Positions 1,469 to 42,385 of a stretch of 64,000 nt of DNA are shown here, in pieces. Position 1 is the stretch's first letter. Every line of letters starts with the position of its first letter. A program made the position numbers and the translations under genes. The notes under the pieces are model-generated. The model saw only the letters and a list, made by a program, of their open reading frames with translations. It was not told where the DNA came from and did not search any database. The stretch comes from Escherichia coli (lineage in GTDB: Bacteria > Pseudomonadota > Gammaproteobacteria > Enterobacterales > Enterobacteriaceae), in the NCBI RefSeq assembly GCF_024223415.1, contig NZ_CP100500.1. One strand, 5' to 3'.

Positions 1469-4141
1469 CTACAGCAAGCTCTTGACATAACTGTCAATGT
1501 CGCTGATGTATTTTTCTATTCCTGGAACATCCTTCTCACGAATCAGATGTTCCAGCGTTTCACATAACTGCTTGCCGGGTACCAGATTTAGCATGGCAAA
1601 TACGCCTTTAAGACGATGAGCCGTTTGGGCTAACGCAGCAAAGTCACTGGTTGCTGCTTCAGTATACAGCCTCTTAACATCATCCGGTACTGTGTCTACA
1701 AAGAGCGCATAATAGCCGCTGGCATGGAGTTGCGCATTTTCATCTCCGCCCAGAGGCGATTCTGTCACCTCTTCCTGCGCCAGTTGCACTTCAATTAATT
1801 GTAAGACCGCTTCCTGCATAGCGTTGCTCATATTGAAGTTGACGCACAATTGACCAGGCCCAATTTCTCGTACGCCAGACTCATCATCGCTTAAAAGCAA
1901 GCCAGAGGCAGTAAGATTAGACGGATTATCCGTTAAAAAGATATCATAATCTTGACTAATTAATCTTTCATCGGGTGTGATACAGGTTGCACCCCAATTT
2001 TCTAACTGGCGAGTGACAATATTCCGAATTTCTGCCGAAGTAACATCCACCATTACGCAGACATCATCCAGTAAACGCTCTTCTTCCTCTTCAACTTCCG
2101 GGTCAGCTGCGAGCATTTTGATATGCACAGAGTAGCGTGTACCAAGCCCATCCCGCGTTTTGATGTTTAAATGACCGCCCAGTTTACGTGCCAGTTGATC
2201 GCTCAGCCAGAATGCCAGCGGGTCCGCCTTGCCATAGCGATCGTTTTGGGTCTGGTTGATAAACGGGAAGTGCAAATTATCCATTTCATGAATGCTTACG
2301 CCTTCTCCGGTGTCCAGAATGCGGAACGTCAGGCGGTCTTCGGAGGACTCATCCTGATCAACCTCAAGGGTGATTTTTCCCAATTGCGTTGAGGTCACGG
2401 CATATTGCATCAGTAGCAGCAAAATACGTCGTAAGGCATCGCGATCGCCGCGGCGCATATCGTGTGCTTTCAGATGATTGTTAATCAGCAGTTGCAGACC
2501 TTTACGCTTGATGGCAGGCAACACTGAAGGCACAACTTCATCAATTAAATCCTGCACGGAGAACAGCACCGTCTCACTTTTCCAGCTATCGTCCGCAAGC
2601 ATGTTCGCTAACTGTATTTCATCGACCAGCCGCACCAGCACATCTGCCTGATTCGCCAGTTGTTTGCTTTCCGGGGCGTTGAGTTTAGCCGCGCTCTCCG
2701 CCAGGGACTGTGCAGGTTCTTTCAGCGCATCGCCAATGTTTTTCATAAAGGTCATCCGCCCCTGCTGGTTTTTCTCATACAGACGCTGCGCCTGCTTGAG
2801 TTTCTTGTTTACCAGCACTTCGCGATCCTGATCGCGAATAATGAAAATTTGTGTGCGCGGCGCAACCTGGCTGCGGAACATGCGGATCTCATACAGCTCG
2901 TTATTGATCGTCGCCTGAATAATCCCCTGATGCTGTTCCGCCATGGTGGTGATGTTTTGCAGATTCAAATGCGGCAGCAAATGATCGGCAATTTTGTTAC
3001 TTATGACAGTGCGGTTCGATTCCTGATCGTGAACCAGCAGGCCGAGCGGCAGCAGTGAGACTATCTCTTCATTGATTGCCCGTAAAATGCGCAATTCGTT
3101 ATTGACCGCCGTGCTGGGGACGCTTTCTGTACTGCGGCTGGAGAAATGGCGGAATGTGGTATAGCCAAATAACGCCAGCGCCAGCAAACCGATGTTCAGC
3201 AGCAGTGGCAGCAGAATGTTTTGCAACGTATCCAGCAGTAAGGTGCCATAAGGAACCTGCCAGACCAGTCGCATATCGGTAGAGTTGAGTGCCGAGGAGA
3301 TTTCAATCTTCGTACTGTTAAAGTGGATACTGACGCTATCCGTCCCTTCTTTCTCATTATCATTGTCTCCCGTTGCCGTCGCGTCTGGCTCAAGGCGGAA
3401 ACTGTCCAGCGGCATACCCGGTGGGATCAAATCATTAATCGGCAGATCAAAAGCCACGACCGTTGCCAGATGTCCCGGCTGGTTGAACGTGGTACGCAAG
3501 GTAAAGTAATGACCGTTCTGCCAGGCCAGGCGGCGCATGTTAGAAAAACTTTCGCGTTCATCGAGGGCGTTGGCCTGTTGCAACATCTCTGCACGACGTG
3601 AATCAACAATGTCACTGACGGTCGATTCTTTAAATCCGGAGGTGAGATCTTTGAGGGGCAGGGTTGAGATCAGCACCAGACTGTTATCCTGACCATTCAG
3701 GTAATACATTGACCACGGTACATTTTCTGCGCCCCACAATGTGTCCAGATAGGTGGACATCCGCTGAGTCATCTCAAGCGTTGAGTTGTCGTGAGAGCCA
3801 AAGATTAACGCTTCCGTTTTGCGACGCGGTTTTTCCAGATAGTAGACATCCTGTTTCAGGCGCGTCTCTTGTAAACCTTCGCCGGAGGAGGGGGAGGTCG
3901 TCGCGGCAATGTTGTCGTAGATCTGCCAGGTCACGTAACGCCAGGTATCGACGCGCTTTTGGATAGCGTGGGTAATGTCGACAATCTGGTAACTTTTATC
4001 TTTCAGCCAGGCGTTAACGGCGCTTTGTACCATTACCCCCATCGTCACCAGTAACACAATGATCAACAGTAAAAAGAAGCGGGTAATGCTCCCCGGTAGG
4101 AGTGAAAAGCGGGTCGTGGCCGTTGTCTCTTTCTGACGCAT
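1469..4141 (-). CDS. rcsD: Phosphotransfer intermediate RcsD (YojN)
   Basis: This is an 890-aa ORF with N-terminal transmembrane segments and a C-terminal HPt motif (AHRLKGVFAMLNL), immediately upstream of rcsB. Confidence 0.93.
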   Translation of the reverse strand: MRQKETTATTRFSLLPGSITRFFLLLIIVLLVTMGVMVQSAVNAWLKDKSYQIVDITHAIQKRVDTWRYVTWQIYDNIAATTSPSSGEGLQETRLKQDVYYLEKPRRKTEALIFGSHDNSTLEMTQRMSTYLDTLWGAENVPWSMYYLNGQDNSLVLISTLPLKDLTSGFKESTVSDIVDSRRAEMLQQANALDERESFSNMRRLAWQNGHYFTLRTTFNQPGHLATVVAFDLPINDLIPPGMPLDSFRLEPDATATGDNDNEKEGTDSVSIHFNSTKIEISSALNSTDMRLVWQVPYGTLLLDTLQNILLPLLLNIGLLALALFGYTTFRHFSSRSTESVPSTAVNNELRILRAINEEIVSLLPLGLLVHDQESNRTVISNKIADHLLPHLNLQNITTMAEQHQGIIQATINNELYEIRMFRSQVAPRTQIFIIRDQDREVLVNKKLKQAQRLYEKNQQGRMTFMKNIGDALKEPAQSLAESAAKLNAPESKQLANQADVLVRLVDEIQLANMLADDSWKSETVLFSVQDLIDEVVPSVLPAIKRKGLQLLINNHLKAHDMRRGDRDALRRILLLLMQYAVTSTQLGKITLEVDQDESSEDRLTFRILDTGEGVSIHEMDNLHFPFINQTQNDRYGKADPLAFWLSDQLARKLGGHLNIKTRDGLGTRYSVHIKMLAADPEVEEEEERLLDDVCVMVDVTSAEIRNIVTRQLENWGATCITPDERLISQDYDIFLTDNPSNLTASGLLLSDDESGVREIGPGQLCVNFNMSNAMQEAVLQLIEVQLAQEEVTESPLGGDENAQLHASGYYALFVDTVPDDVKRLYTEAATSDFAALAQTAHRLKGVFAMLNLVPGKQLCETLEHLIREKDVPGIEKYISDIDSYVKSLL

Positions 4142-19282: not shown

Positions 19283-20132
19283 ACGTGACGCCGGGCGCGA
19301 GGCGCTGGAGAAAAAAGGCTGGTGGCGCAGTCACCGTTGGCTGGTGTTACGTCGCCTTTGTCAGTTCTTCGTGCTGGGGATGTTTTTTAGCGGTCCGTGG
19401 TTTGGTGTGTGGATCTTGCACGGCAACTACAGCAGTAGCCTGTTATTCGACACCGTTCCGCTGACCGATCCGCTGATGACGCTGCAAAGTCTTGCCAGTG
19501 GTCATCTGCCTGCCACGGTGGCGTTGACCGGTGCGGTGATTATCACCGTGCTCTACGCCCTGGCAGGAAAGCGATTATTTTGCAGCTGGGTCTGCCCGCT
19601 GAACCCGATTACCGACTTAGCGAACTGGTTACGCAGGCGCTTTGACCTCAATCAGTCTGCGACGATCCCTCGCCACATTCGCTACGTGCTGTTGGTGGTC
19701 ATTCTGGTGGGATCAGCCTTAACTGGCACGCTCATCTGGGAATGGATCAACCCCGTTTCCCTGATGGGGCGTAGCCTGGTAATGGGCTTCGGCAGCGGCG
19801 CGCTGCTTATTCTCGCGCTGTTTTTATTTGATCTACTGGTCGTTGAACACGGCTGGTGCGGGCACATTTGTCCGGTTGGCGCGCTGTATGGCGTGCTGGG
19901 TAGCAAAGGTGTGATTACCGTTGCGGCCAGCGATCGGCAGAAATGTAACCGCTGTATGGATTGTTTTCATGTTTGCCCGGAACCGCATGTGCTACGTGCC
20001 CCGGTGCTGGATGAACAAAGCCCGGTGCAGGTCACCAGCCGCGATTGCATGACGTGCGGTCGCTGCGTGGATGTCTGTTCTGAGGATGTATTTACAATAA
20101 CTACACGATGGAGTTCGGGAGCGAAATCATGA
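19269..20132 (+). CDS. napH: Membrane ferredoxin-type NapH
   Basis: This is a 287-aa ORF with transmembrane segments and C-terminal CxxCxxCxxxCP motifs. Confidence 0.92.
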
Positions 20133-20578
20133 AAAGCCATGACCTGAAGAAAGCGCTGTGTCAATGGACGGCGATGCTGGCCCTGGTGGTAAGCGGCGCG
20201 GTTTGGGCGGCTAATGGCGTCGATTTTAGCCAGTCGCCGGAAGTATCCGGGACGCAGGAAGGGGCCATTCGGATGCCAAAAGAGCAGGATCGGATGCCGC
20301 TGAACTATGTGAATCAGCCGCCAATGATCCCGCATAGCGTTGAAGGTTATCAGGTAACGACCAATACCAACCGCTGCTTGCAGTGCCACGGTGTCGAAAG
20401 CTATCGCACCACTGGCGCGCCGCGTATCAGTCCTACTCACTTTATGGACAGCGACGGCAAAGTGGGCGCGGAAGTGGCTCCGCGTCGTTATTTCTGTCTG
20501 CAATGTCACGTACCGCAGGCCGATACCGCGCCAATCGTGGGGAATACCTTTACCCCATCAAAAGGTTACGGGAAATAA
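20129..20578 (+). CDS. napB: Dihaem cytochrome c NapB
   Basis: The ORF is 20108..20578. The accepted start MKSHDLKK is at 20129. It has two CxxCH motifs (CLQCH twice). Confidence 0.9.
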   Translation: MKSHDLKKALCQWTAMLALVVSGAVWAANGVDFSQSPEVSGTQEGAIRMPKEQDRMPLNYVNQPPMIPHSVEGYQVTTNTNRCLQCHGVESYRTTGAPRISPTHFMDSDGKVGAEVAPRRYFCLQCHVPQADTAPIVGNTFTPSKGYGK

Positions 20579-31257: not shown

Positions 31258-31278
31258 CGTATAACCAAACGTATAACT
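31258..31278 (+). repeat. Two direct CGTATAAC(C/T) motifs, candidate integrase arm-type sites at the distal end
   Basis: CGTATAACC at 31258 and CGTATAACT at 31270. The same 9-mer occurs four times next to int at 42236-42285. Confidence 0.55.
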
Positions 31279-31447
31279 AAAATCATTTGCTGAAAAAGTG
31301 TACAATTTAAAGGCGAGTTTTCCCAGAGGTTTATTAAACTACGAAAATTTCGTAGTTTGTGAATATATTCCGGCCTGCTGGTTAACAGTCCTCAGATGTG
31401 AGGGATGTAGCCAGCGCAATTTTGCGCTTTGCTTTAATCTCAGTCAG

Positions 31448-31729
31448 TTATCGCCGTAACCGCTCCGGCTTCTTCCAGTGGTACGTAATTTTTTCTTTCT
31501 CCCGATACAGTTCAACGCGGCGATTGTAGGCCAGCATTTCCAGAACGCGGATCCGTATGTCGCGCATATCCACGCCGTTAAGCTCAATACCGTCACGGCG
31601 CATCACCTCAGCAACCACACGCGCATAATTTTCGGCGGTCACGCTGTCCGGCTGCGTGGCCTGTTCGTCAGCCTGCTGGCTGATTCCGGCAACGCGACGG
31701 ATTAATCGCAGTAGTTCGGCTTCTGTCAT
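31448..31729 (-). CDS. Hypothetical 93-aa protein flanking cos-1
   Basis: The ORF has a plausible composition, is the last gene before the island end, and abuts the cosQ side of cos-1. I do not recognise the family. Confidence 0.55.
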   Translation of the reverse strand: MTEAELLRLIRRVAGISQQADEQATQPDSVTAENYARVVAEVMRRDGIELNGVDMRDIRIRVLEMLAYNRRVELYREKEKITYHWKKPERLRR

Positions 31730-31763
31730 TGTGCCCCCATCGTTCTGATAGTCTGGTGTCGTC

Positions 31764-31989
31764 GGGTCCTTCCTGGAATTATGGCCCGTTACGGGGCGTC
31801 GACCTCGCGGTTTTTCGCTATTTATGAGATTTTTTGAGGGGGTGGTTGTTGTTTAATTGTTTGGTATATCTAATTGATAAGTAAGGTAAAAATAAAATAA
31901 ATACAACAACCTTACGGTGTATTTTGATGTCATTAATGTGAAAAAATTCAATGATATCAAATGGTTTTGTAAAAACATATGGTTGTTGT
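31764..31989 (+). other. cos-1: lambda-type cohesive-end site (cosQ GGGTCCT, cosN, cosB with GGTTGTTGT repeats), reading rightward
   Basis: gggtccttcctggaattatggcccgttacg|GGGCGTCGACCT|cgcggtttttcgctatttatgag aligns with the lambda junction GGGTCCTTTCCGGTGATCCGACAGGTTACG|GGGCGGCGACCT|CGCGGGTTTTCGCTATTTATGAA. The 12-nt end equivalent is at 31794-31805. Confidence 0.8.
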
Positions 31990-32163
31990 ATCGCGTATTT
32001 GATGGCGTAACAGAAAGTGATTTTTAACTTTACCGCTCTGTAACTACGGATTATTCCATGCTGGCACGGAGAACGGCTACGGCATGACGCCACCCAGCCT
32101 ATACAGAACAGTAAAGCCGATAAATTGTTAATCACGCGCAGCAATGCGTGTGATTTTTGCACA

Positions 32164-32359
32164 CTTCCGGTTAACGGGTACGATGTCCGGTTTGTTTGTA
32201 CATTTTTTGCACATGTCCGGTTCGCAGAAAGCATGTTTTTATATTTTTCATATAGTTAACTTGCAGAGAAACCGGACATGGATCCCGAAAAATTTTCATA
32301 AATAGTGAAAACGCGCGAGGTCGACGCCCCGTAACGGGTCCACATGCCGGAAAGGACCC
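32164..32359 (-). other. cos-2: second lambda-type cos site in inverted orientation (cosB with ATGTCCGGTT repeats), reading leftward
   Basis: The minus strand reads gggtcctttccggcatgtggacccgttacg|GGGCGTCGACCT|cgcgcgttttcactatttatgaaaattttc. The 12-nt end equivalent is at 32329-32318. Confidence 0.8.
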
Positions 32360-32361
32360 GC

Positions 32362-32384
32362 AAAAAAAGCCGGATTTCTCCGGC
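32362..32384 (-). terminator. Rho-independent terminator ending the capsid operon
   Basis: The minus strand reads GCCGGA-gaaa-TCCGGC followed by TTTTTTT, 7 nt after the stop of the 137-aa gene. Confidence 0.8.
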
Positions 32385-32390
32385 CTTGTC

Positions 32391-32804
32391 TCAGATGGTT
32401 TTCAGTATGCGATCGATGTTGCCGTCATCGACCGGGTTTCTGCCATCGTATGCCATGCCAGCTGATACGGCTTTCGGGCTGTGCATGTCCATAAAGTTTT
32501 CAAAGGCTGAAGTAAGCTGTGGTGCAACCTTCGGGCGTTCCTGCTCTATGGTCATGCTAAGGATGCTTTTAGCCGTACCAACATCGATACAAGGCACGTT
32601 AGCCATTGCACGTAACAGCGGCTGGTAGTCGTCAGATTCATGAAGCGCCATAATCGCATCAGCGCGCTGCTTGTCCTGTTCTTCCAGTTTGTTTAGTCGG
32701 TGTATGGCCTCGTAGGTTGATAAACCTCTGTCAGCCATTGCCCGCGCTTCGGCTTTAAATTTACTCGCCAGCGGTAGCGTCATGATACTTTCATTCGTTG
32801 CCAT
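32391..32804 (-). CDS. Hypothetical 137-aa protein, last gene of the capsid operon (possible scaffold or size-determination factor)
   Basis: The ORF is tightly spaced after the decoration gene and has an acidic, helical-looking sequence. I do not recognise the family. Confidence 0.6.
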   Translation of the reverse strand: MATNESIMTLPLASKFKAEARAMADRGLSTYEAIHRLNKLEEQDKQRADAIMALHESDDYQPLLRAMANVPCIDVGTAKSILSMTIEQERPKVAPQLTSAFENFMDMHSPKAVSAGMAYDGRNPVDDGNIDRILKTI

Positions 32805-32816
32805 CGTTCCCCCTGC

Positions 32817-33152
32817 TTATCGGGCCAGCGGCTGAACGGATACGCCGGAACCCGCAAAGGCGGCGCATTTTTTCGCATCGGTGTCGACGCTGTCAGGCCA
32901 GTTAACGGCGGCAATATTGAATATCCCCGTTTTGTAACACTGTGCTGATTTCTGCTTTGACGTGTCCACGGGGTGCGAAGTCAGATAAACAGCTTTGCCA
33001 GATTCCTGACCATCCCACGCCTTAAACTCGCCATTGTCTGCCAGCATCAGCGGGGTAAATTCCTGAATAACGCCAGCATCAGCGGCAAAATGTACCAGCG
33101 TCGTGGATACCTGCTGGCTGCCTGCAAATAACTCAATATATGGAGCGTCCAT
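32817..33152 (-). CDS. Head decoration protein, lambda gpD family
   Basis: TPLMLADNGEFKAWDG and YKTGIFNIAAVNWP...KKCAAFAGSGVSV align with lambda gpD TPLMLDTSSRKLVAWDG and YKSGTFRYEDVLWP...KKRTAFAGTAISI. Confidence 0.85.
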   Translation of the reverse strand: MDAPYIELFAGSQQVSTTLVHFAADAGVIQEFTPLMLADNGEFKAWDGQESGKAVYLTSHPVDTSKQKSAQCYKTGIFNIAAVNWPDSVDTDAKKCAAFAGSGVSVQPLAR

Positions 33153-33163
33153 AGAATCCCCCG

Positions 33164-34219
33164 TTAAGCAATTTTGACGGTAACAAATTTGCGAATATCT
33201 GCCGGTACCGGCTGCGGTGCGCTGTGCGTCTGCACGTACTCAATCGCCGGATCGCCGTCCTCAATCCAGTTTTTCGGGTAGTACATGTTTTGCGTTGCGC
33301 CCGTTCTTACCGCTTCCTGATCCATAATCGCACCATATGCCACAAGCCCTTTATTGTTGGTGTTACCCAGGACAAGCAAATCAGGCTCAAGGAAATATTT
33401 TTCGGTGCCGTCGCTGTCAGTGTATTTGCCGGAATAGACGATAAGGGCCAGATCACCAAGATAGCCTTTAAAGCTCACCACTTCGCCCAGGTTTTTACAG
33501 GCCAGCTCGGCGGCGGATTCTGAGCCACGGTAAAGATCGTACAGTTCACGGAATTTTTTAAAGCTGCGTAATGTGCGCCATGCCTCACCGCCCATAATCA
33601 TGACGTTGGCGGGGCAACCTGCCTGATCAGCATAAAGCTCGATGTCATAGATTGGGTCGTGCATGTCTTTATCCTGCTGGGACCATTTTTTACCACTGGC
33701 CTGCTGTATGATGCAGTTTTCCGGTATTTTCCAGTCGATTTCATAGCGTTCTATGCCTTCGCCCTCAATGATGTTTTTTCCGGTCGTTACCGCATTCACC
33801 GCCAGCCATTCCACGCGCGCCTTAATGGCGTTTATCTGGCGGCGCATGTTGCCAGTAATCAGGCGCATACGGCGGTAAGTTGGATCGTTAAGCTGTGCCG
33901 GATCTTCTCCAGCCATGCGCATGATGGTCTTTGTTGGATCGATTTCGTGCTTTGGCTTCATGTAGCCTGGTTTAATCGTGCTGGTTTCGTACCCTTTATC
34001 GCGCTGGACCTGACTACCCACCATAGGAGAACAGAACGCTGACATCGTAACCTCTTCAATGTCCAGGGTGTCCAGCATGATGTTTTGGGTGTTGAAGGTC
34101 GCCACGTTCGGGAAAAACAGCGTGGTAAACAGCGGACTAAATTTAAATTCCGAAATATCCCCGCGATTCAGGTACGCGAAAAGCTGGTTAGTTGTAAGTG
34201 CCGTTGCTTTGCCTGTCAT
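33164..34219 (-). CDS. Major capsid protein, lambda gpE family
   Basis: FKFSPLFTTLFF, PGYMKPKHEIDP, DPTYRRMRLI, IVYSGKY and YPKNWIEDGDPAIEY align with lambda gpE FKFDPLFLRLFF, PGYVKPKHEVNP, DPAYRRRRII, VVYSGQY and YPKNWVTTGDPAREF. Confidence 0.9.
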   Translation of the reverse strand: MTGKATALTTNQLFAYLNRGDISEFKFSPLFTTLFFPNVATFNTQNIMLDTLDIEEVTMSAFCSPMVGSQVQRDKGYETSTIKPGYMKPKHEIDPTKTIMRMAGEDPAQLNDPTYRRMRLITGNMRRQINAIKARVEWLAVNAVTTGKNIIEGEGIERYEIDWKIPENCIIQQASGKKWSQQDKDMHDPIYDIELYADQAGCPANVMIMGGEAWRTLRSFKKFRELYDLYRGSESAAELACKNLGEVVSFKGYLGDLALIVYSGKYTDSDGTEKYFLEPDLLVLGNTNNKGLVAYGAIMDQEAVRTGATQNMYYPKNWIEDGDPAIEYVQTHSAPQPVPADIRKFVTVKIA

Positions 34220-34636: not shown

Positions 34637-34658
34637 AAAAAAGCCGGATTGCTCCGGC
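34637..34658 (-). terminator. Rho-independent terminator after the ProQ/FinO-like gene
   Basis: The minus strand reads GCCGGA-gcaa-TCCGGC followed by TTTTTT, 26 nt after the stop at 34684. Confidence 0.75.
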
Positions 34659-34683
34659 TTCGTCTCTTCATGTGGTCAGGGTT

Positions 34684-35278
34684 TTATGCTTTCCGTACGC
34701 CCGAGGAACTGGCATTTTTCAGAATAATATTATGCCCTGCTGGTGGCTTACCGTTATGCTTATTTTCTGCCTTCATGTTTCTGCGCTCCTGCTGTTTTTT
34801 CTTCATCTCATCCAGTCGCTTCCCCGCGTTCAACTGGTGCTCCTGTGTCACCTCCCCGCACGGATGGCCTTTCAGGTCGTAACGCACGCCACCAGCCATC
34901 AGGGAACGGTAATATCGCACTGAACTGACATAATACGCCAGCGTTGCGCGAAGCGCTCCCTGACCTAATGAAATACCTCTCGCAGTAATATCCTCCATCA
35001 GGTCATCAAATATGCCAACCTTAAGCGGTCTGGGCGATTCCTGGCTGAAAAGTTCAGGCCAGAGCGCGGCAAGGCGTTCAACGCGTCTGATATTTTTTTT
35101 CCGGCTCTTTTCTGATTTGCGTTTTGCTGCCGTCTTCTGTTGTGTTTTCTGCTCGCGGCTCTGCTTTTGCGCTGGTGTGGTTTTATCCGGCTGTTCAGCC
35201 TCCTGCGTCTTTTTCTGCGGTGTGCCGTATATGCCTTTTGGTTTTCGGTTAATGGTCAGCTTTGTCATGTTCTCCCCC
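34684..35278 (-). CDS. ProQ/FinO-domain RNA-binding protein with a lysine-rich N-terminal tail
   Basis: PRPLKVGIFDDL...LRATLAYYVSSVRYYRSL..GGVRYDLKGHPCGEVTQEH aligns with E. coli ProQ ARPLKIGIFQDL...LRSALRLYTSSWRYLYGV..GATRVDLDGNPCGELDEQH. The preferred start is MTKLTINRK at 35278, behind the RBS AGGGGGAG. The track ORF extends to 35364. Confidence 0.8.
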
Positions 35279-35347
35279 TTTGTGCTGTTCCACCAGCGGC
35301 ATCTGCTACCCCGTGTCGCTCCCGCTGGTGTCGTGTTTCCCCGCCTG

Positions 35348-35668
35348 TTAATAACCGTCATCATTTACGTTATCAGGGTAATCACGCCATATTTCATCAG
35401 TAAGCGACGGTAGCCCCATCTGTTGTATTGTCCTGTCTGCGGCCCTTCTGACTGCGTGAACATCATAACGGTTTTCAGGTATCGGGCGCTTTGCCTTCCT
35501 GATACATTCCCTTGCTCTCATTGCCGCAAGTTCTCTGTGCCTGTCTTCCTGAAGAGTAATCATCACATCCTGCCACCTTCTGGCAGCCCGTCGCCACAGT
35601 CCCCTGCTCTCGAGTTCTTCTGCTGTCGCGTCGCTTATTGTCCGGTTCTTCGGTGTGCTGTTGTTCAT
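35348..35668 (-). CDS. PerC-family (PerC/Pch-like) transcriptional regulator
   Basis: This is a 106-aa ORF. The N-terminal AEELESRGLWRRAARRW motif resembles the PerC signature. The call is made from memory of the family only. Confidence 0.55.
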   Translation of the reverse strand: MNNSTPKNRTISDATAEELESRGLWRRAARRWQDVMITLQEDRHRELAAMRARECIRKAKRPIPENRYDVHAVRRAADRTIQQMGLPSLTDEIWRDYPDNVNDDGY

Positions 35669-36096: not shown

Positions 36097-36344
36097 GCTG
36101 TATGCTCTCCGGTTTTAACGTTGATGGTTGTCACCTGTTCCGCTCCGGCAATCTCCCGTTCTGTCAGCGTGGCAAAATTTGCCGCTACCGTTGTCATGAA
36201 TGCGCTTATCAGTTCGGGATGTGCTTTCGCGTATCCTTCTCCCGCGTGGCGGTCTATCGTTCTGATTGCCACCTTTAAGGCGTGCTCTGTCATGTCTAAC
36301 GCTTTATATTTTGGCGCTGTCTTATCTCTGGTTTTTCTGTTCAT
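36093..36344 (-). CDS. Hypothetical protein (83 aa from MNRKTRDK)
   Basis: The track ORF is 36093..36374. Its first 10 codons are translated iteron repeats, so the start at 36344 is preferred. It overlaps the ssb start. Confidence 0.55.
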   Translation of the reverse strand: MNRKTRDKTAPKYKALDMTEHALKVAIRTIDRHAGEGYAKAHPELISAFMTTVAANFATLTEREIAGAEQVTTINVKTGEHTA

Positions 36345-36555
36345 TCCCCACCACTCCCCACTTTTGCTCCCCACTTTTTAAATTCCCCACTTGCTCCCCA
36401 CCTCGTTTTTTGAGTGAATCTAATGCTTTGTTTTTCATTGCGTTTTTTACTCCCCACTTTTTTGGATGTATACAGGTGGGAAAGTGGGGAATTATGTTTC
36501 AATTTTGTTAAATTCCCCACTCTCCCCACTTTTACTACCCACTTTTTACAGTGGG
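36345..36555. repeat. Iteron-type replication origin: about 13 copies of YCCCCAC(T) flanking an AT-rich spacer
   Basis: Direct copies are tccccac, ctccccact (x4), ttccccac (x2), tctccccact and tacccact. Inverted copies are gtggga, gtgggga and gtgggta. The AT-rich core is at 36411-36448. The region lies immediately 3' of the helicase gene. Confidence 0.7.
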
Positions 36556-37961
36556 TAAACATCATCCCCATCGACACAAATCACGCCGTCTTTTTCCAGC
36601 TTGGACAGCCAGCGCCGGAAGTGCTTCATCTCATACCCCAGCTTTTTCATATCGTCGCGGAGAAGGGCGATAGTGCATGGCTCTTTGTGTGCCGTCCGCG
36701 TTCTGATGCACTGCCATAGCGCGGTATGGTTTTCCGTCTTGTTGCCTGCCTCCTCGATGCGCTCCAGTTCAACGGGAGAGCGCGGCTTATCAACCACCAC
36801 CAGCGACGTGATTAACTCCCCGTCAGCGTCGGTAAAAAGCTCCACCACGCGTAAATCGTAGGCGGCCTCTTTCAGTTCCTCCGCGTCCTTCATTTTGGTG
36901 CAGGATATAACCAGGGCTTTACTGTCTGCACCTTCTCGGCGAATACGGTATTCAGCGTCCAGAGATGCACGAAATGCACTGGAACCACGCGCCCCCTTTG
37001 TTTCATCCTTGCCGGAATGGTGGACCACCAGCACCGTGGCCCCTGTGCGTCGTTTCAGGTCGTCACATCCACGGATAAACGCCCCCATATCCCGCGCGTC
37101 ATTTTCATCATTACCGCCAAAGCAACGCGCCAGCGTATCCAGAATAATCATGCGTACCGGTTTACCCGTTTCCCGTTCAACCTGGCGGGAAGCGATAACC
37201 ATTTCATCAACATCAAGCGGGGCTGCCGGAAAAATCGGGCGGTTTACCAGGTACAGATTTTTCACCCGTTCATCATTAACGATTTCCCATGCCTTGATAC
37301 GACGGGGGACACCAATGCCACCTTCACCGACAACATACATCACCGAACCATGCGCCACCCTGCGGCCTCCCCAGTGGCGCCCCGTGGCAACATGACACGC
37401 CCAGGAACACGCAAGGAATGATTTATAGGAACCGCTCGCACCGTATGTGCTGCACAATGAATTAGCCGGAATCACGCCCTTAACGACATAATCAAGCTGT
37501 GTGTCGTATCCTGCAGATCCAATGCTCATGGGTAGCGTGGTTTTTCGCTGGCTGTATTGCTCATCAGTAAGTATTTCCCCGCGCTCTGCCTGTTCGCGGA
37601 TCCGTTGCAGGTAGTCGCGCCATTCCTCCCGCTTCTGGCTGTGCATTCCCTCGGGGTAATAACTCGCATCCCGTATACCTGCCGCCGCCAGTTTTTGCCC
37701 GATGGCATTAATATTTGATGGCTTGATGTGGCCTGCCTTGTACAGCCGGACACAATAGCGACCATCGTCGATAATTTTCAGGTCTGCCAGTTCGTCAAGC
37801 TGACTGTCTCCCAGCCATACTGGCGGGACGTTATCGCCAGCAAGTCGCCCGTCCTGTTCCTGCCATTGTTTTGCGTGCGCCCAGGCATCACTACCTGCAA
37901 AAATAATGACTTCGGTCATTTTGTTGTGTGGCTGTTTTTTTAAGTTCGGTGCCAGTTTCAT
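36546..37961 (-). CDS. Replication initiator helicase (RecA-fold, RepA/DnaB-like AAA_25 type) with a C-terminal winged-helix domain
   Basis: This is a 471-aa ORF with a Walker A-like GASGSYKS, Walker B MIILDTLARCFGG and the motif VLVVHHSGKD. The start is coupled to the upstream gene (ATGA). Confidence 0.8.
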   Translation of the reverse strand: MKLAPNLKKQPHNKMTEVIIFAGSDAWAHAKQWQEQDGRLAGDNVPPVWLGDSQLDELADLKIIDDGRYCVRLYKAGHIKPSNINAIGQKLAAAGIRDASYYPEGMHSQKREEWRDYLQRIREQAERGEILTDEQYSQRKTTLPMSIGSAGYDTQLDYVVKGVIPANSLCSTYGASGSYKSFLACSWACHVATGRHWGGRRVAHGSVMYVVGEGGIGVPRRIKAWEIVNDERVKNLYLVNRPIFPAAPLDVDEMVIASRQVERETGKPVRMIILDTLARCFGGNDENDARDMGAFIRGCDDLKRRTGATVLVVHHSGKDETKGARGSSAFRASLDAEYRIRREGADSKALVISCTKMKDAEELKEAAYDLRVVELFTDADGELITSLVVVDKPRSPVELERIEEAGNKTENHTALWQCIRTRTAHKEPCTIALLRDDMKKLGYEMKHFRRWLSKLEKDGVICVDGDDVYPL

Positions 37962-38261: not shown

Positions 38262-38462
38262 TTATTTTCCTGTCAGTGATTCCGGCTTTATTCCGGCGCG
38301 AATACAGGCTTCAGAAAAAAAAGCCAGAGAACCAATAACCTCATTATTTCTAAGGCGGCATTGCGATTTCACTTTCCCTTTATCCAGGAATATCAAAACG
38401 CGCCCCGTATAATCAGATGGCACATTAAGCACTACAGGTAAGTGCGCTTCATGATTATTCAT
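38262..38462 (-). CDS. Hypothetical 66-aa protein
   Basis: The start MNNHEAHLPV at 38462 lies behind the RBS CAGGAGGTGG and overlaps the upstream stop (ATGAATAA). The track ORF extends to 38531. Confidence 0.6.
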   Translation of the reverse strand: MNNHEAHLPVVLNVPSDYTGRVLIFLDKGKVKSQCRLRNNEVIGSLAFFSEACIRAGIKPESLTGK

Positions 38463-38898
38463 GGCTAACCACCTCCTGGAATTTTCTTCTGTAACGCGCC
38501 TCTGCCACATATTCAGCATAGTCCGACGCAATATTGAGAATATCGCTACCCGTTCCTGAATGTTCGGCGGTTTCCAGTAAAAAACATGCAGCTTTTACCA
38601 TGTCAGCAACACATAACAGCGCAATATCTGTATCTTCCGGTGTGCCATCAAATTCCTGTTTCAGGGCATTAAAACGATCATCACGCATAACCCCATATTC
38701 ACAATCAGCAATCAGGATGGCTTTGGCCTCATTCAGTGCCATATCAGCGGTAAGCTGTGCGTAGGCCAGCAAATGCGGGATTATTGCCCCTGTATATTCC
38801 GGCTCTCTGATAATGTGGTCGGATGTGTTGATTAAATAGTTTGTGCGAAAAATGCACCTGTAACCATCAGTTAACAACGGATATACAGGGGGGACCAT
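38455..38898 (-). CDS. Hypothetical protein (about 147 aa if started at MVPPVY; the true start is uncertain)
   Basis: The C-terminal ~130 aa have protein-like composition (..ALNEAKAILIADCEYGVMRDDRFNALKQEFDGTPEDTDIALLCVADMVKAACFLLETAEH..) and the stop is coupled to the next gene. No strong RBS precedes 38898. Confidence 0.5.
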   Translation of the reverse strand: MVPPVYPLLTDGYRCIFRTNYLINTSDHIIREPEYTGAIIPHLLAYAQLTADMALNEAKAILIADCEYGVMRDDRFNALKQEFDGTPEDTDIALLCVADMVKAACFLLETAEHSGTGSDILNIASDYAEYVAEARYRRKFQEVVSHE

Positions 38899-39681
38899 GA
38901 ATGATAAGGGGGTGCCGTTTGATGTGCTCCTGCAAAAGCTGAATGCTGCACGCGCCGCAAGGGAACGTGAGCGCATGAGTAATAACCCTGTCCCTCCTGA
39001 ATTACCTCGCCCTGAACATTTTCCGCTTGAGGATTTCATCAGGGGACGAATCCGAACAAAACGATAACCGCCGCCGTGATATGAGGCATCACGACGCAAT
39101 GCATTACAGGTGAGCACCATGAACAAATCCATATTATCCCCCACAGTTCTGGACGTAAACACAAAGCAGCGACAGATATTATTACGCGCCGTCATTAAAG
39201 CCAGACACGAGAAATTAAACCAAATCTTAAAATAAGATACGCCGCTACCGCTGTAAGTCTTCATCAGAAACAGAAAACGCCAGAGCAGATGAGCACGGAG
39301 GTAACTCTTTATGAAAATAAACGAATCAGGGGAAATTACCGAAGCCAGCGTGGTACGCCAGCGGAGGCGGGAACGACGGGTACGGCCCCCCGCGCCATCC
39401 GATAATTTCCCGCTTGAGCGCTTCATCAGTGAACGGCCCCGCATACGCTGGAACGGCACAACCCCATACCCCGAGGAGAGACAGACAAAAAACAAACAGC
39501 GATGATGAAATCTGGAGGCCAATACCATCACGCAGCCATCAGGAGATTGCTGACGCGCTTCCTGTTCGCTGGTGGCCTCGATGGTAATCACGCGCGGTTG
39601 TGCAGTGCTCAGGGCGATAAAACGCCACACAAAGGCCGTTTGTGTGTGCGCAAGGCGTGGGGTATGCTGTGTTCCAGCCAT
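38455..39681 (-). CDS. Icd-like (host cell-division inhibitor-like) N-terminus continuing without a stop into the downstream gene. This may not be a single real protein.
   Basis: A strong RBS AGGAG lies 7 nt before the ATG at 39681. The sequence MAGTQHTPRLAHTQTAFVWRFIALSTAQPRVITIEATSEQEARQQ resembles Icd-like proteins of P4-type elements. The following ~260 codons are R/S/C-rich and junk-like, yet stop-free. Confidence 0.35.
   Translation of the reverse strand: MAGTQHTPRLAHTQTAFVWRFIALSTAQPRVITIEATSEQEARQQSPDGCVMVLASRFHHRCLFFVCLSSGYGVVPFQRMRGRSLMKRSSGKLSDGAGGRTRRSRLRWRTTLASVISPDSFIFIKSYLRAHLLWRFLFLMKTYSGSGVSYFKIWFNFSCLALMTARNNICRCFVFTSRTVGDNMDLFMVLTCNALRRDASYHGGGYRFVRIRPLMKSSSGKCSGRGNSGGTGLLLMRSRSLAARAAFSFCRSTSNGTPLSFMVPPVYPLLTDGYRCIFRTNYLINTSDHIIREPEYTGAIIPHLLAYAQLTADMALNEAKAILIADCEYGVMRDDRFNALKQEFDGTPEDTDIALLCVADMVKAACFLLETAEHSGTGSDILNIASDYAEYVAEARYRRKFQEVVSHE
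38897..39067 (+). CDS. Candidate small ORF (56 aa), paralogous to 39311..39505
   Basis: A G-rich RBS (GGGGGG) precedes the ATG. It shares ..FPLE.FI..R.RIR with the second ORF. It is antisense to the long minus-strand frame. Confidence 0.3.
   Translation: MNDKGVPFDVLLQKLNAARAARERERMSNNPVPPELPRPEHFPLEDFIRGRIRTKR
39311..39505 (+). CDS. Candidate small ORF (64 aa), paralogous to 38897..39067
   Basis: The RBS GGAGG lies 8 nt before the ATG. It shares the NFPLERFISERPRIR block with the other ORF. Confidence 0.3.
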   Translation: MKINESGEITEASVVRQRRRERRVRPPAPSDNFPLERFISERPRIRWNGTTPYPEERQTKNKQR

Positions 39682-39808
39682 AATCGTTACTCCTGTTAAC
39701 GGTTTGGTTAGACGCCCTGCATGTGTGCCACCACTGCGGGGCGTTGTTTTTGTGGTGTCATTGGTATACATTGTCACCTTAATGGCATTATCACTACAGA
39801 GGTTTATC

Positions 39809-39985
39809 ATGTCAACCAATGACAACAAAAAAGAAAGATTTTCCGTACAACTACGCCTAGACGCAGATTTGTTCGAGCGTTTAAGTATTGCCATGAAAGA
39901 AGATGGCGACGATAACCGATCTGGATGGATCAAAAGGCTTTTACGACGCGAATTAGATAAACGCGGCATTGAGTCAAAAAGCTGA
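39809..39985 (+). CDS. Ribbon-helix-helix (Arc/MetJ/CopG-like) DNA-binding protein and candidate island repressor. It is the only convincing plus-strand gene in the island.
   Basis: MSTNDNKKERFSVQLRLDADLFERLSIAMKEDGDDNRSGWIKRLLRRELDKRG has the beta-strand/helix/helix pattern typical of RHH proteins. An AGAGG RBS precedes it, and a terminator follows at 40079-40107. Confidence 0.6.
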   Translation: MSTNDNKKERFSVQLRLDADLFERLSIAMKEDGDDNRSGWIKRLLRRELDKRGIESKS

Positions 39986-40078
39986 CAGCCAACCAGCAAG
40001 CCAGCACACTGATCACATTGCCCACCAGCCGCAAATGTGGCATTGTTGGTGATGCTTTTGTTTTCCCTTGTTCCCACT

Positions 40079-40107
40079 GGCGACCCTTTTGCGGTCGCCT
40101 TTGTTTT
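40079..40107 (+). terminator. Plus-strand rho-independent terminator downstream of the RHH gene
   Basis: GGCGACC-cttttgc-GGTCGCC hairpin followed by TTTGTTTT. Confidence 0.65.
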
Positions 40108-40203
40108 GCCTGTTATCCGGCAATTGTGGCGCTTCGCCACACGGTTTATATAACCCCACTGCTCAGATTCATTTTTTGCGCAGTAGGTTAATTGTTCGCA
40201 AGG

Positions 40204-40230
40204 GCGGCTCCTTATCGGGGCCGCTTTTTT
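40204..40230 (+). terminator. Second plus-strand terminator, possibly the 3' end of a small antisense RNA
   Basis: GCGGCTCC-ttatc-GGGGCCGC hairpin followed by TTTTTT. It is not functional in the minus orientation, where no U-run follows. Confidence 0.55.
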
Positions 40231-40256
40231 CGTGTTTGTCATATCTGTGATACCCG

Positions 40257-40463
40257 TTAAGCAGCCGTTCCGCGTGCTTCCTGTTCGCGTTCTTTCTGCC
40301 AGGCCAACACATCATCCTCATACCATCCGCGACGGCGTAAACCAACGCGAAAACCCTGCGGAAATTCTCCGGCGTTGATCATGCTTTGCAGCGTGCTGTC
40401 TGCCTTGATGTGGATAATTTTTTTTACTTCCTGGCGAAAGATAATTTTTCTGATTGCTTCCAT
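40257..40463 (-). CDS. alpA: AlpA-family regulator/excisionase (MerR-type wHTH)
   Basis: This is a 68-aa ORF. The sequence ...STLQSMINAGEFPQGFRVGLRRRGWYEDDVLAWQ is typical of the AlpA/prophage CP4-57 regulatory family. Confidence 0.8.
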   Translation of the reverse strand: MEAIRKIIFRQEVKKIIHIKADSTLQSMINAGEFPQGFRVGLRRRGWYEDDVLAWQKEREQEARGTAA

Positions 40464-40959: not shown

Positions 40960-42219
40960 CTACACGGCTCGGATACCCCTTTTACCACTGGCGAGGGTTA
41001 CGCCCGTCGCCGCAGCCTCGACAAATTCGCCCCACCAGCGCATCAGCACGATGCGTTTTTCTATGTAGTTGCTCCGGTTGTATGCCCGTCTAACTTCGTT
41101 GGTGTCGACGTGGGCAAGTGCCGCCTCTATTACGTCCGGCTCGAATCCTTCCTCGTTCGCTGCTGTGCTGAATATGGCGCGTAATCCATGAGACACCAGC
41201 ACGCCAGCGAATCCCATACGCCGCAATGCTGCGTTAGCTGTCTGGCTGTTCATCGGCTGCTGTGGGTCTTTCAGACTTGGGAAAACGTAATTGCGGTGGT
41301 GGCTGATTGGTTTCATGGCCTCCAGCACCGCCATAGCCTGACCGGAAAGCGGGATAACGTGATCCCTGCGCATCTTCATGCGTCCGGCAGGTATCGTCCA
41401 TTGCTTCGCGTCCAGGTTGATTTCATCCCACCGCGTTGATGACGCTTCGGCGGGACGGGTTACGGTCAGTAACTGCCATTCAATCAGTAATCTGGTCTGC
41501 CGTTCTGTTGCCGATACTGATAAAGCCTGCATAAGCTCGGGCAGCTGTTCGGGGCGGATTGTTGGCATATGTTTTTTTACAGGTGAGGGAAACGCCTTAC
41601 GCACATTCATAGCCGGATTGGCATCAATCAGCCCACTGTTGGCGGCGTAATCCATTACCTCATTAACGCGCTGTAAAACCCGCTTGAGTGTTTCCAGGTT
41701 GCCGCGCTCCTTGATGGGGGTAAGCACTTCAACGAACCTTCGGGCGGTGAGGGTATCTATTGGCGTGTTGCCGATGAACGGGAATACATATTTATCCAGC
41801 GAACGCCAGATGTCTTTAATCGTGTTGGGGGCCAGATTCTGGCTGATTTTCACCTGGTACCATGCCGCCGCCACATTTTCGAACGTGTTCCCTTGTCTTC
41901 GGGCCTCTGTCTCTCTTTTTTGCCTCTCGTGGTCCTGCGGGTCAGTTCCGGCACTGATTAACGTCCTGTACTCGCTACGGCGTTTTCTGGCATCAGCCAG
42001 GGAAACATCTTCAAGCGATCCAAAACTCAGCAATATTCTTTTTTTGTCCGATGGTCGGTAGTAGGAAAATCTCCAGAGTTTTGATCCAGACGGTTTGACC
42101 AGGAGAAAAAGCCCTCCGCCGTCCTGCAGGGTGTACTCCTTTTGCGCTGGTCTGGCTGCTTTGATCTGCACTGTGGTTAATGGGTGTGTTTTTCTCGCCA
42201 TATGTCTATGATTCCACAC
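40960..42219 (-). CDS. int: Tyrosine integrase, P4/CP4-57 (DUF4102 N-terminal arm-binding) type
   Basis: The N-terminus reads LTTVQIKAARPAQKEYTLQDGGGLFLLVKPSGSKLWRFSY. The catalytic region contains HGLRAIFST..ALAHV and RAYNRSNY. An alternative start MARKTHP lies at 42201. The gene is adjacent to the tRNA. Confidence 0.9.
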   Translation of the reverse strand: MWNHRHMARKTHPLTTVQIKAARPAQKEYTLQDGGGLFLLVKPSGSKLWRFSYYRPSDKKRILLSFGSLEDVSLADARKRRSEYRTLISAGTDPQDHERQKRETEARRQGNTFENVAAAWYQVKISQNLAPNTIKDIWRSLDKYVFPFIGNTPIDTLTARRFVEVLTPIKERGNLETLKRVLQRVNEVMDYAANSGLIDANPAMNVRKAFPSPVKKHMPTIRPEQLPELMQALSVSATERQTRLLIEWQLLTVTRPAEASSTRWDEINLDAKQWTIPAGRMKMRRDHVIPLSGQAMAVLEAMKPISHHRNYVFPSLKDPQQPMNSQTANAALRRMGFAGVLVSHGLRAIFSTAANEEGFEPDVIEAALAHVDTNEVRRAYNRSNYIEKRIVLMRWWGEFVEAAATGVTLASGKRGIRAV

Positions 42220-42235: not shown

Positions 42236-42285
42236 AGTTATACGGCTTTAGTTATACGTCAGCCCGTATAACTAAACGTATAACT
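42236..42285. repeat. Four CGTATAACT motifs (two inverted, two direct), candidate integrase arm-type sites
   Basis: AGTTATACG at 42236 and 42250; CGTATAACT at 42265 and 42277. They lie directly upstream of int. Confidence 0.6.
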
Positions 42286-42385
42286 AAAAAATCCGGCTGA
42301 TAGCTTATAAATCCGGTGATGTTCGGTGACTAAAAAACATAAAAAAACCCGCCAATCAAGTGATTAGCGGGTTATCCCTGTCTTA

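Follow-up and report, generated by a model that had tools for sequence, protein, structure and literature searches.

EcCICFT073 is the model E. coli PICI and was found in 2018 to contain two cosN sequences (Fillol-Salom et al., ISME J, PMC6092414). Each of its cos sites alone let lambda and phi80 transfer a plasmid. When the sites were deleted from the island itself, loss of cos1 lowered transfer, loss of cos2 raised it and loss of both abolished it, and the increase upon cos2 deletion was seen with lambda as well as with phi80 (PMC6092414). A heterodimer of RppA (c1503) and phage TerS recognises the cosB of cos1 (2019 Mol Cell, PMC6739421), and both EcCICFT073 cos sequences are given in Figure S1A of that work. 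Murialdo and Feiss (2022, PMC9026076) considered only the cos-rpp arrangement and left the second site unmentioned. The same paper summarises the established lambda-21 paradigm of packaging specificity, in which N-terminal DNA-binding domains of TerS are exchangeable on a common TerL-binding C-terminus (PMC9026076). Two putative cos sites have also been cited for SaPIbov4 (PMC6092414). Our searches found no later literature explaining cos2 and nothing relevant on PhiR12 or on inverted cos sites.

In the CFT073 genome (locus L006) the two sites lie at 19559 on the plus strand and at 20309 on the minus strand. They are convergent, as are those in the 64-kb stretch of DNA analysed here (the window). 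The order in CFT073 is a 137-aa ORF, cos1, cosB1, rppA (144 aa), a hairpin, cosB2, cos2 (inverted) and a 93-aa ORF. Because the two EcCICFT073 sites are both functional and convergent, an element with two opposed cos sites was already known, and the suggestion of the first-pass annotation that such an element was without precedent does not hold. An rpp gene downstream of cos1 and an Rpp-specific cosB are traits of the Rpp subgroup and not of all PICIs.

An ~11-kb PICI of the EcCICFT073 family

The island lies between a yejO pseudogene and tRNA-Pro/yejM, with chromosomal genes flanking both sides, and the window is 99.9% identical to E. coli strain 135. A 16-bp candidate att repeat, AAACGTATAACTAAAA, is present at the left border (31267..31282) and again at 42274-42289, so that one unit would measure 11,007 bp; it was chosen as the longest exact repeat common to the border regions, which is the one line of evidence for it. 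A tyrosine integrase gene (40960..42219, minus strand; Pfam) stands at one end of the island, and an AlpA-like HTH regulator/excisionase is encoded at 40257..40463 (minus strand; annotation, PHROG). The replication module comprises a RepA-type helicase (AAA_25; 36546..37961, minus strand; annotation and Pfam) and iteron-like repeats that adjoin it (36335..36548; repeat search). In these repeats, just downstream of the helicase ORF, TTTTRCTMCCCACTTTTT occurs three times at 83-85 bp spacing inside two 46-nt repeats, and they are probably the island's replication origin. SSB and PerC genes are also present.

The major capsid protein (lambda gpE family; 33164..34219, minus strand; Pfam Phage_cap_E, 1.7e-50) and a head decoration protein (lambda gpD family; 32817..33152, minus strand; Pfam HDPD, 1.7e-17) are the only structural proteins in the RefSeq annotation of the identical island. 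Neither that annotation nor Pfam revealed terminase, portal, tail or lysis genes in the island, and no hit to TerS or TerL was obtained within the 64-kb window. The island thus has the size (~11 kb, against ~10-15 kb for this kind of island), att repeats, end integrase, AlpA and own replication module that characterise PICIs, and the capsid homologue that is common in them, which makes the double-cos region the packaging module of a PICI from the EcCICFT073 family.

Two conserved ORFs frame this module. Just outside the left cos is a 93-aa ORF (phrog_1561; 31448..31729, minus strand), homologous to the CFT073 ORF at 20374-20655 of L006 and giving no hit in a Pfam search. We rejected it as a candidate Rpp, the supplement of PMC6739421 placing RppA as a 144-aa protein between the sites. 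On the other side, a 137-aa ORF (phrog_1999; 32391..32804, minus strand) weakly matches the C-terminal part of head maturation protease, covering 494-566 of the 583 residues of that family. It is reminiscent of the lambda Nu3 scaffold nested in gpC and is named 'head-tail connector' by PGAP in some genomes. A hairpin with a T-run, AAAAAAGCCGGATTNCTCCGGC, separates this ORF from cosQ (32363..32392, minus strand). It looks terminator-like by eye and was not listed in a terminator scan of 31300-32900; it is repeated at 34637-34666, upstream of the capsid operon region.

Two other genes were noted. A ProQ/FinO-family RNA-chaperone gene (34684-35364, minus strand; Pfam, 2.1e-26) is not in the CFT073 island annotation. 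A 595-aa ORF annotated 'Icd-like' (38455-40242, minus strand), without a hit in the Pfam search, has PHROG matches only, one to a repressor-like stretch in its interior and one to an unknown family at its C-terminus, which gives it the look of a fusion. In CFT073 this position is taken by several small ORFs and a primase.

Two convergent cores match the lambda cos junction

The packaging module is built on an inverted repeat, the 73-nt arms of which (31763-31835 and 32288-32360) are 84% complementary and separated by 452 nt. The left core, cos-L (31763..31835, plus strand), reads rightward, with cosQ (GGGTCCT) at 31764-31770, a spacer that we call 'Q93' and an I2-like segment. The right core, cos-R (32288..32360, minus strand), reads leftward, with cosQ at 32353-32359, a 'Q137' spacer and again an I2-like segment. 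The equivalent of the cohesive end, GGGCGTCGACCT, occupies 31794-31805 on the plus strand and 32318-32329 on the minus strand.

We aligned both arms to the genuine lambda genome ends (NC_001416). In both, cosQ and the cosQ-cosN spacing (GGGTCCT-N17-GTTACG) are those of lambda, the I2 segment TTTTC.CTATTTATGA matches, and the 12-nt cohesive end GGGCGTCGACCT carries a single G-to-T difference from lambda that is identical in the two arms. The similarity ends, for each arm, at the start of lambda cosB R3. The full pattern, GGGTCCT-N17-GTTACG followed by GGGCGTCGACCT and CGCG, has exactly two matches in the 64-kb window (31764-31809, plus strand; 32314-32359, minus strand) and none in 100 shuffles. 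Comparison with the real lambda junction therefore bears out the first-pass annotation: it had placed two opposed lambda-type cos sites in a satellite, and both its coordinates and its estimate of about 85% identity over about 75 bp were accurate. As the arms converge, both cosB regions lie back to back between the two cosN sites, as it had also described. A scan for the IHF consensus gave no match in the module, and none in lambda either, so that it carries no weight.

The G-to-T change is present in both arms of the window, of L018 and of the second island of strain GF4 (GF4 #2), while other islands have G in both. The identity of this base in the two arms of each island implies that the arms evolve in concert.

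Each core adjoins a different phage-type cosB

The left cosB region, cosB-L (31836..32027, plus strand), closely copies the cosB native to lambdoid prophages of the EF5/H19 type. Its R-like repeats, GGTTGTTGT, are at 31844-31852 (forward), 31903-31911 (inverted) and 31981-31989 (forward), that is, at positions 51, 110 and 188. Over 155 bp it is 93-97% identical to the cosB of the prophages in strains H19 and EF5-18-41 (L008/L009), against a background of 0.55-0.61; in these prophages the cosB is directly upstream of terS, and the similarity to the window stops at the terS start. The cosB-L type was present in 298 of 5,426 complete genomes and has no counterpart in CFT073. A copy of 82-84% identity occupies the cos2 position of NCTC86/B-2207-type PICIs, beside an intact rpp. 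A search of sequenced phages gave no match, whereas prophages and IMG/VR contigs did.

The right region, cosB-R (32151..32287, minus strand), is of the cos2 type and is a near-copy of the native PhiR12-type cosB. One R-like repeat, TGTCCGGTT, is in forward orientation on the minus strand at 32270-32278 (position 52), and inverse copies are at 32214-32222, 32184-32192 and 32164-32172 (positions 108, 138 and 158). It matches PhiR12_1-5 at 88.6% identity, directly upstream of their Nu1 gene; over the cosB part, identity is 89% to CFT073 cos2 and 78% to PhiR12. The distinct cosB repeats noted earlier are thus real, GGTTGTTGT on the left and TGTCCGGTT on the right.

Set against lambda R repeat positions of 53, 114 and 155, the first two R-like repeats of the window (51/110 on the left, 52/108 on the right) are close to lambda R3/R2 (53/114). 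Both sites consequently contain what is expected of a functional lambda-type cos as judged by sequence, namely cosQ at the lambda spacing, a 12-nt cosN end and R-like repeats. By the same homologies, the cos2-type cosBs are native cosBs of common lambdoid prophage classes.

Two TerS classes and their prophages

The TerS proteins encoded beside the two cosB types, PhiR12 and EF5/H19, both belong to the Phage_Nu1 family. They share 24% identity in residues 1-70 and 88% from residue 71 on. The first ~70 residues are the DNA-binding domain in lambda Nu1, and a divergent N-terminus on a common C-terminus is the same pattern as that of lambda/21 packaging specificity. Phage contigs in IMG/VR show both classes with the cohesive end of the window: L017 and L020 combine the T-variant end with cosB2 (the cos2-type cosB) and a Nu1 100% identical to that of PhiR12, and L019 and L016 combine it with cosB-L and a TerS 98% identical to that of EF5. 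The TerL N-termini of the contigs of both classes are 94-96% identical to that of PhiR12. Since both classes carry the exact T-variant end beside TerS and TerL, this form of the end is one that phages use.

These data bear on the earlier proposal that the element could be packaged by two different terminases. Two specificities are supported comparatively, since the two cosBs are near-copies of those native to two distinct lambdoid TerS classes; the TerL, by contrast, is the same, so the proposal is more precisely one of two TerS specificities. In two of the phage contigs that have their own cosB, TerS and TerL, L020 (at 3595) and L016 (at 12889), we also observed the island 'Q137' cosQ-cosN spacer with at most three mismatches, which points to exchange between islands and phages on the cosQ side too.

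Candidate helper prophages are common. The PhiR12-class junction of cosB and TerS was found in 1,145 of the 5,426 genomes (21%), and the EF5-class junction in 223 (4%). A PhiR12-type prophage is co-resident in three of the 10 module-bearing genomes, which is no enrichment over the 21% background for such prophages. Strain 135 had no other cos-type or cosB match, so neither class has a resident helper there.

The island has lost rpp

The first-pass annotation had treated the element as an Rpp-type PICI, an assumption that the window contradicts. Tblastn recovered only the last 22 codons and the stop of an rpp gene (AGWRHAVAVLRASME*; 32033..32098, minus strand), corresponding to residues 123-144 and 73% identical to RppA and 82% to the Rpp of B-2207; there was no other Rpp hit in the 64-kb window. 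A second rpp tail, consisting of the last codons and stop, was located by alignment to the CFT073 cos2 side at 32100..32150 (plus strand), in the opposite orientation. It includes a terminator-like hairpin (32133-32150, plus strand; hairpin search) that is also found beside CFT073 cos2. The cosB1 motif, CACCACCAC, is absent from the window. The inner segment thus consists of two halves, each an rpp tail with a phage-type cosB, joined tail-to-tail. Nothing in CFT073 corresponds to cosB-L, and rpp is gone, so we rejected a simple inversion of the CFT073 cassette as its source.

The module recurs in other genomes and Rpp loss has a second origin

The search of E. coli genomes that had been called for earlier found the rpp-less inner segment in 13 of 5,426 genomes, so it extends beyond one strain. 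Ten copies are of the window type and are 96.9-99.8% identical. Identity of 96.9-99.9% to other complete E. coli genomes indicates that the module is neither an assembly artefact nor a single-strain oddity. Window-type modules are at three integration sites (yejO/tRNA-Pro, phoQ and clpS) with varied replication modules beside them.

The remaining three genomes (L023 type) form a separate lineage of NCTC86-type islands. There, a phage cosB2 and Nu1 codons 1-9 of the PhiR12 type have taken the place of cosB1 and rpp codons 1-77. In E. coli 2012C-4221 (L023, 1708-1917) an annotated 69-aa ORF joins Nu1 codons 1-9 to rpp codons ~78-128. This fusion is a scar of island-phage recombination at cos and direct evidence of it. 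The L023 type is a second route to the rpp-less state, and Rpp loss has arisen at least twice.

Decay was seen in one module. In GF4 #2 (L012, at phoQ) the outer cosN is degenerate (GGGCGTGGAACC; ~2990-3010), the spacer has a 1-bp deletion and the 93-aa gene is frameshifted, so such modules do decay. We considered whether one cos is a non-functional relic: the island would be an EcCICFT073-type PICI in decay, deprived of rpp by rearrangement and packaged from one cos or from none. The tail-to-tail rpp remnants do resemble rearrangement debris, the one decayed cosN and the lack of a matching prophage in strain 135 would fit, and fewer genomes have the rpp-less variant than the rpp-carrying form (13 versus 68 + 15). 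However, both cores of the window are intact, and every fetched copy but GF4 #2 has two intact cohesive-end motifs. Both cosBs keep all their R-like repeats at lambda-like positions and are still 89-97% identical to working phage or PICI cosBs. The module also occurs in both orientations, at three integration sites and beside more than one kind of replication module. This, and the independent rpp-less lineage of the L023 type, also argue against decay. We regard this explanation as unlikely, though it is the one among the alternatives to which we give most weight.

The cassette between the cores inverts

The cosQ-cosN spacers are fixed by position, 'Q137' beside the 137-aa gene and 'Q93' beside the 93-aa gene, and everything inward of cosN is found in either orientation. 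The window and seven other loci pair Q93 with cosB-L and Q137 with cosB2 (8 loci), and L011-L014 have the opposite pairing, Q137 with cosB-L and Q93 with cosB2 (4 loci). The 545-bp inner segment of L011-L014 is collinear with the window at 96.5-99.3% identity. Strain GF4 has both isomers, in two islands. The switch between the window and L011 falls inside the shared 25-bp core around cosN.

The rpp-carrying cassette also inverts, as we had predicted. We built its flipped junction in silico and found 100% full-length matches to it in 15 genomes, compared with 68 genomes that have the unflipped, canonical cos1-rppA junction. In E. coli WP4-S17-ESBL-08 (L024) the 751-bp cassette is 100% identical to that of CFT073 and inverted, so that rppA is directed against the capsid operon. 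At L024 3342-3372 both arms have a Q93-type spacer, that is, one arm has been converted. This converted spacer suggests that the inverted repeats recombined homologously, with gene conversion, and not that terminase made a clean cut and rejoining. Cut-and-rejoin as the sole mechanism of flipping, the premise of which is that an excised inner fragment would bear identical overhangs at both ends, is unsupported in view of the converted cosQ spacer in the L024 arm; it is a possibility at other loci.

Such inversion might itself be the function of the paired sites. The inverted cos pair would then primarily be an inversion switch, setting for example the orientation of rpp relative to late transcription, and the dual specificity would be incidental. 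Both orientations are indeed natural in rpp-carrying (68 versus 15 genomes) and rpp-less (8 versus 4 loci) cassettes, and rpp in the flipped islands is directed against the capsid operon. But the window cassette holds no intact gene to regulate and no invertase gene adjoins it, ordinary recombination between the 73-bp repeats would account for the switch points and the converted spacer, and the same two packaging sites remain in either orientation. We consider a primary role as a switch to be improbable.

Proposed packaging by two classes of helper

The reading that we favour, and hold to be probable, is that the window contains an EcCICFT073-family PICI without rpp and cosB1, in which each cos carries the cosB of a different helper class and would be served by the TerS of that class. 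A helper of either TerS class would most likely package the island directly, with no part played by Rpp; homology suggests that both sites may be cut, each by its own class. After induction of a helper the island would excise, replicate and form concatemers. A helper of the EF5/H19 TerS class would bind the GGTTGTTGT repeats, nick the left cosN and package rightwards, and a helper of the PhiR12 TerS class would bind the TGTCCGGTT repeats, nick the right cosN and package leftwards. In either direction about four 11-kb units would enter a lambda-sized head and Rpp would not be needed; with a unit of 11,007 bp, we infer by arithmetic that four units (44 kb) would fill such a head. As inverted repeats, the two cores would let the cassette between them invert through homologous recombination or gene conversion, and the shared core would serve as the crossover point for acquiring the cosB of a helper phage.

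The raised transfer of EcCICFT073 by lambda and phi80 upon cos2 deletion implies that, with some helpers, an additional cos in the opposite orientation can come at a cost, and it shows that cos2 engages terminase non-productively there. The second cos might on this basis act mainly in interference, as a decoy that titrates or misdirects the helper terminase by opposed cutting or collision, and not as a productive start. Yet both EcCICFT073 cos sites support plasmid transfer, a productive site also needs an exact copy of the helper's cosB, and nothing in the present data indicates a cost to the helper. The loss of Rpp, the only known interference factor of the island, is in keeping with a decoy, and it could also mark a degenerating island. 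We think it very unlikely that interference is the main role of the second cos.

A more general reading, which we put forward tentatively and at a little under even chances, is that the convergent cos pair of EcCICFT073-family islands would be a modular, invertible helper-range cassette, which captures the cosBs of circulating helper phages by crossover at the conserved cosQ-cosN core. In this reading cos2 would allow packaging independent of Rpp by those TerS classes that Rpp does not serve, and some islands, this one among them, would have abandoned Rpp for direct mimicry of two helper classes. If true, it would explain why a second cos site is present in some PICIs, a question raised in the literature. 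The native-phage identity of the cos2-type cosBs predicts which helpers use which site, the rpp-less islands suggest that Rpp is dispensable and can be replaced by direct mimicry of cos, and the intervening cassette inverts and is exchanged with phages. These points matter for islands with accessory and virulence genes, for their helper range and their spread alike, and for the design of PICI-based delivery vehicles. The rpp-less form with two phage-type cosBs, the phage origin of the cos2-type cosB and the invertible cassette appear to be undescribed in the literature that we searched.

Comparison with known systems

The window shares with lambda the cosQ-cosN-I2 architecture, a 12-nt cohesive end and R-like repeats at the R3/R2 positions. 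It differs in having no terS or rpp after either cos and two opposed sites in one replicon, and its cosB sequences are unrelated to those of lambda. SaPIbov5 and SaPIbov4 are cos-type staphylococcal PICIs that are packaged through carrying the cos of their helper; their cos is of an unrelated type (HNH/cos staphylococcal phages), without sequence relationship to the window.

NCTC86/B-2207-type PICIs (at phoQ; L010) are closer. They have a cosB of the cosB-L type, 82-84% identical, on the 93-aa side, followed by an rpp 3' end that corresponds to the window remnant (82% over 22 aa). In contrast to the window, cosB1 and a complete 146-aa Rpp are still present on their capsid side.

EcCICFT073 and the window have the same flanking genes and gene order, with 91-95% nucleotide identity on both flanks, two convergent lambda-type cores with position-specific cosQ spacers, and a cos2 cosB with TGTCCGGTT repeats that is 89% identical to the window cosB-R. 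This cos2-type cosB lies toward the capsid genes in the window but toward the 93-aa ORF in CFT073. The window cohesive end has the G-to-T change in both arms, and the replication module has a RepA-type helicase where that of CFT073 has a primase. Between its sites EcCICFT073 has rppA and an Rpp-specific cosB1, whereas the window lacks both and has a second phage-type cosB instead.
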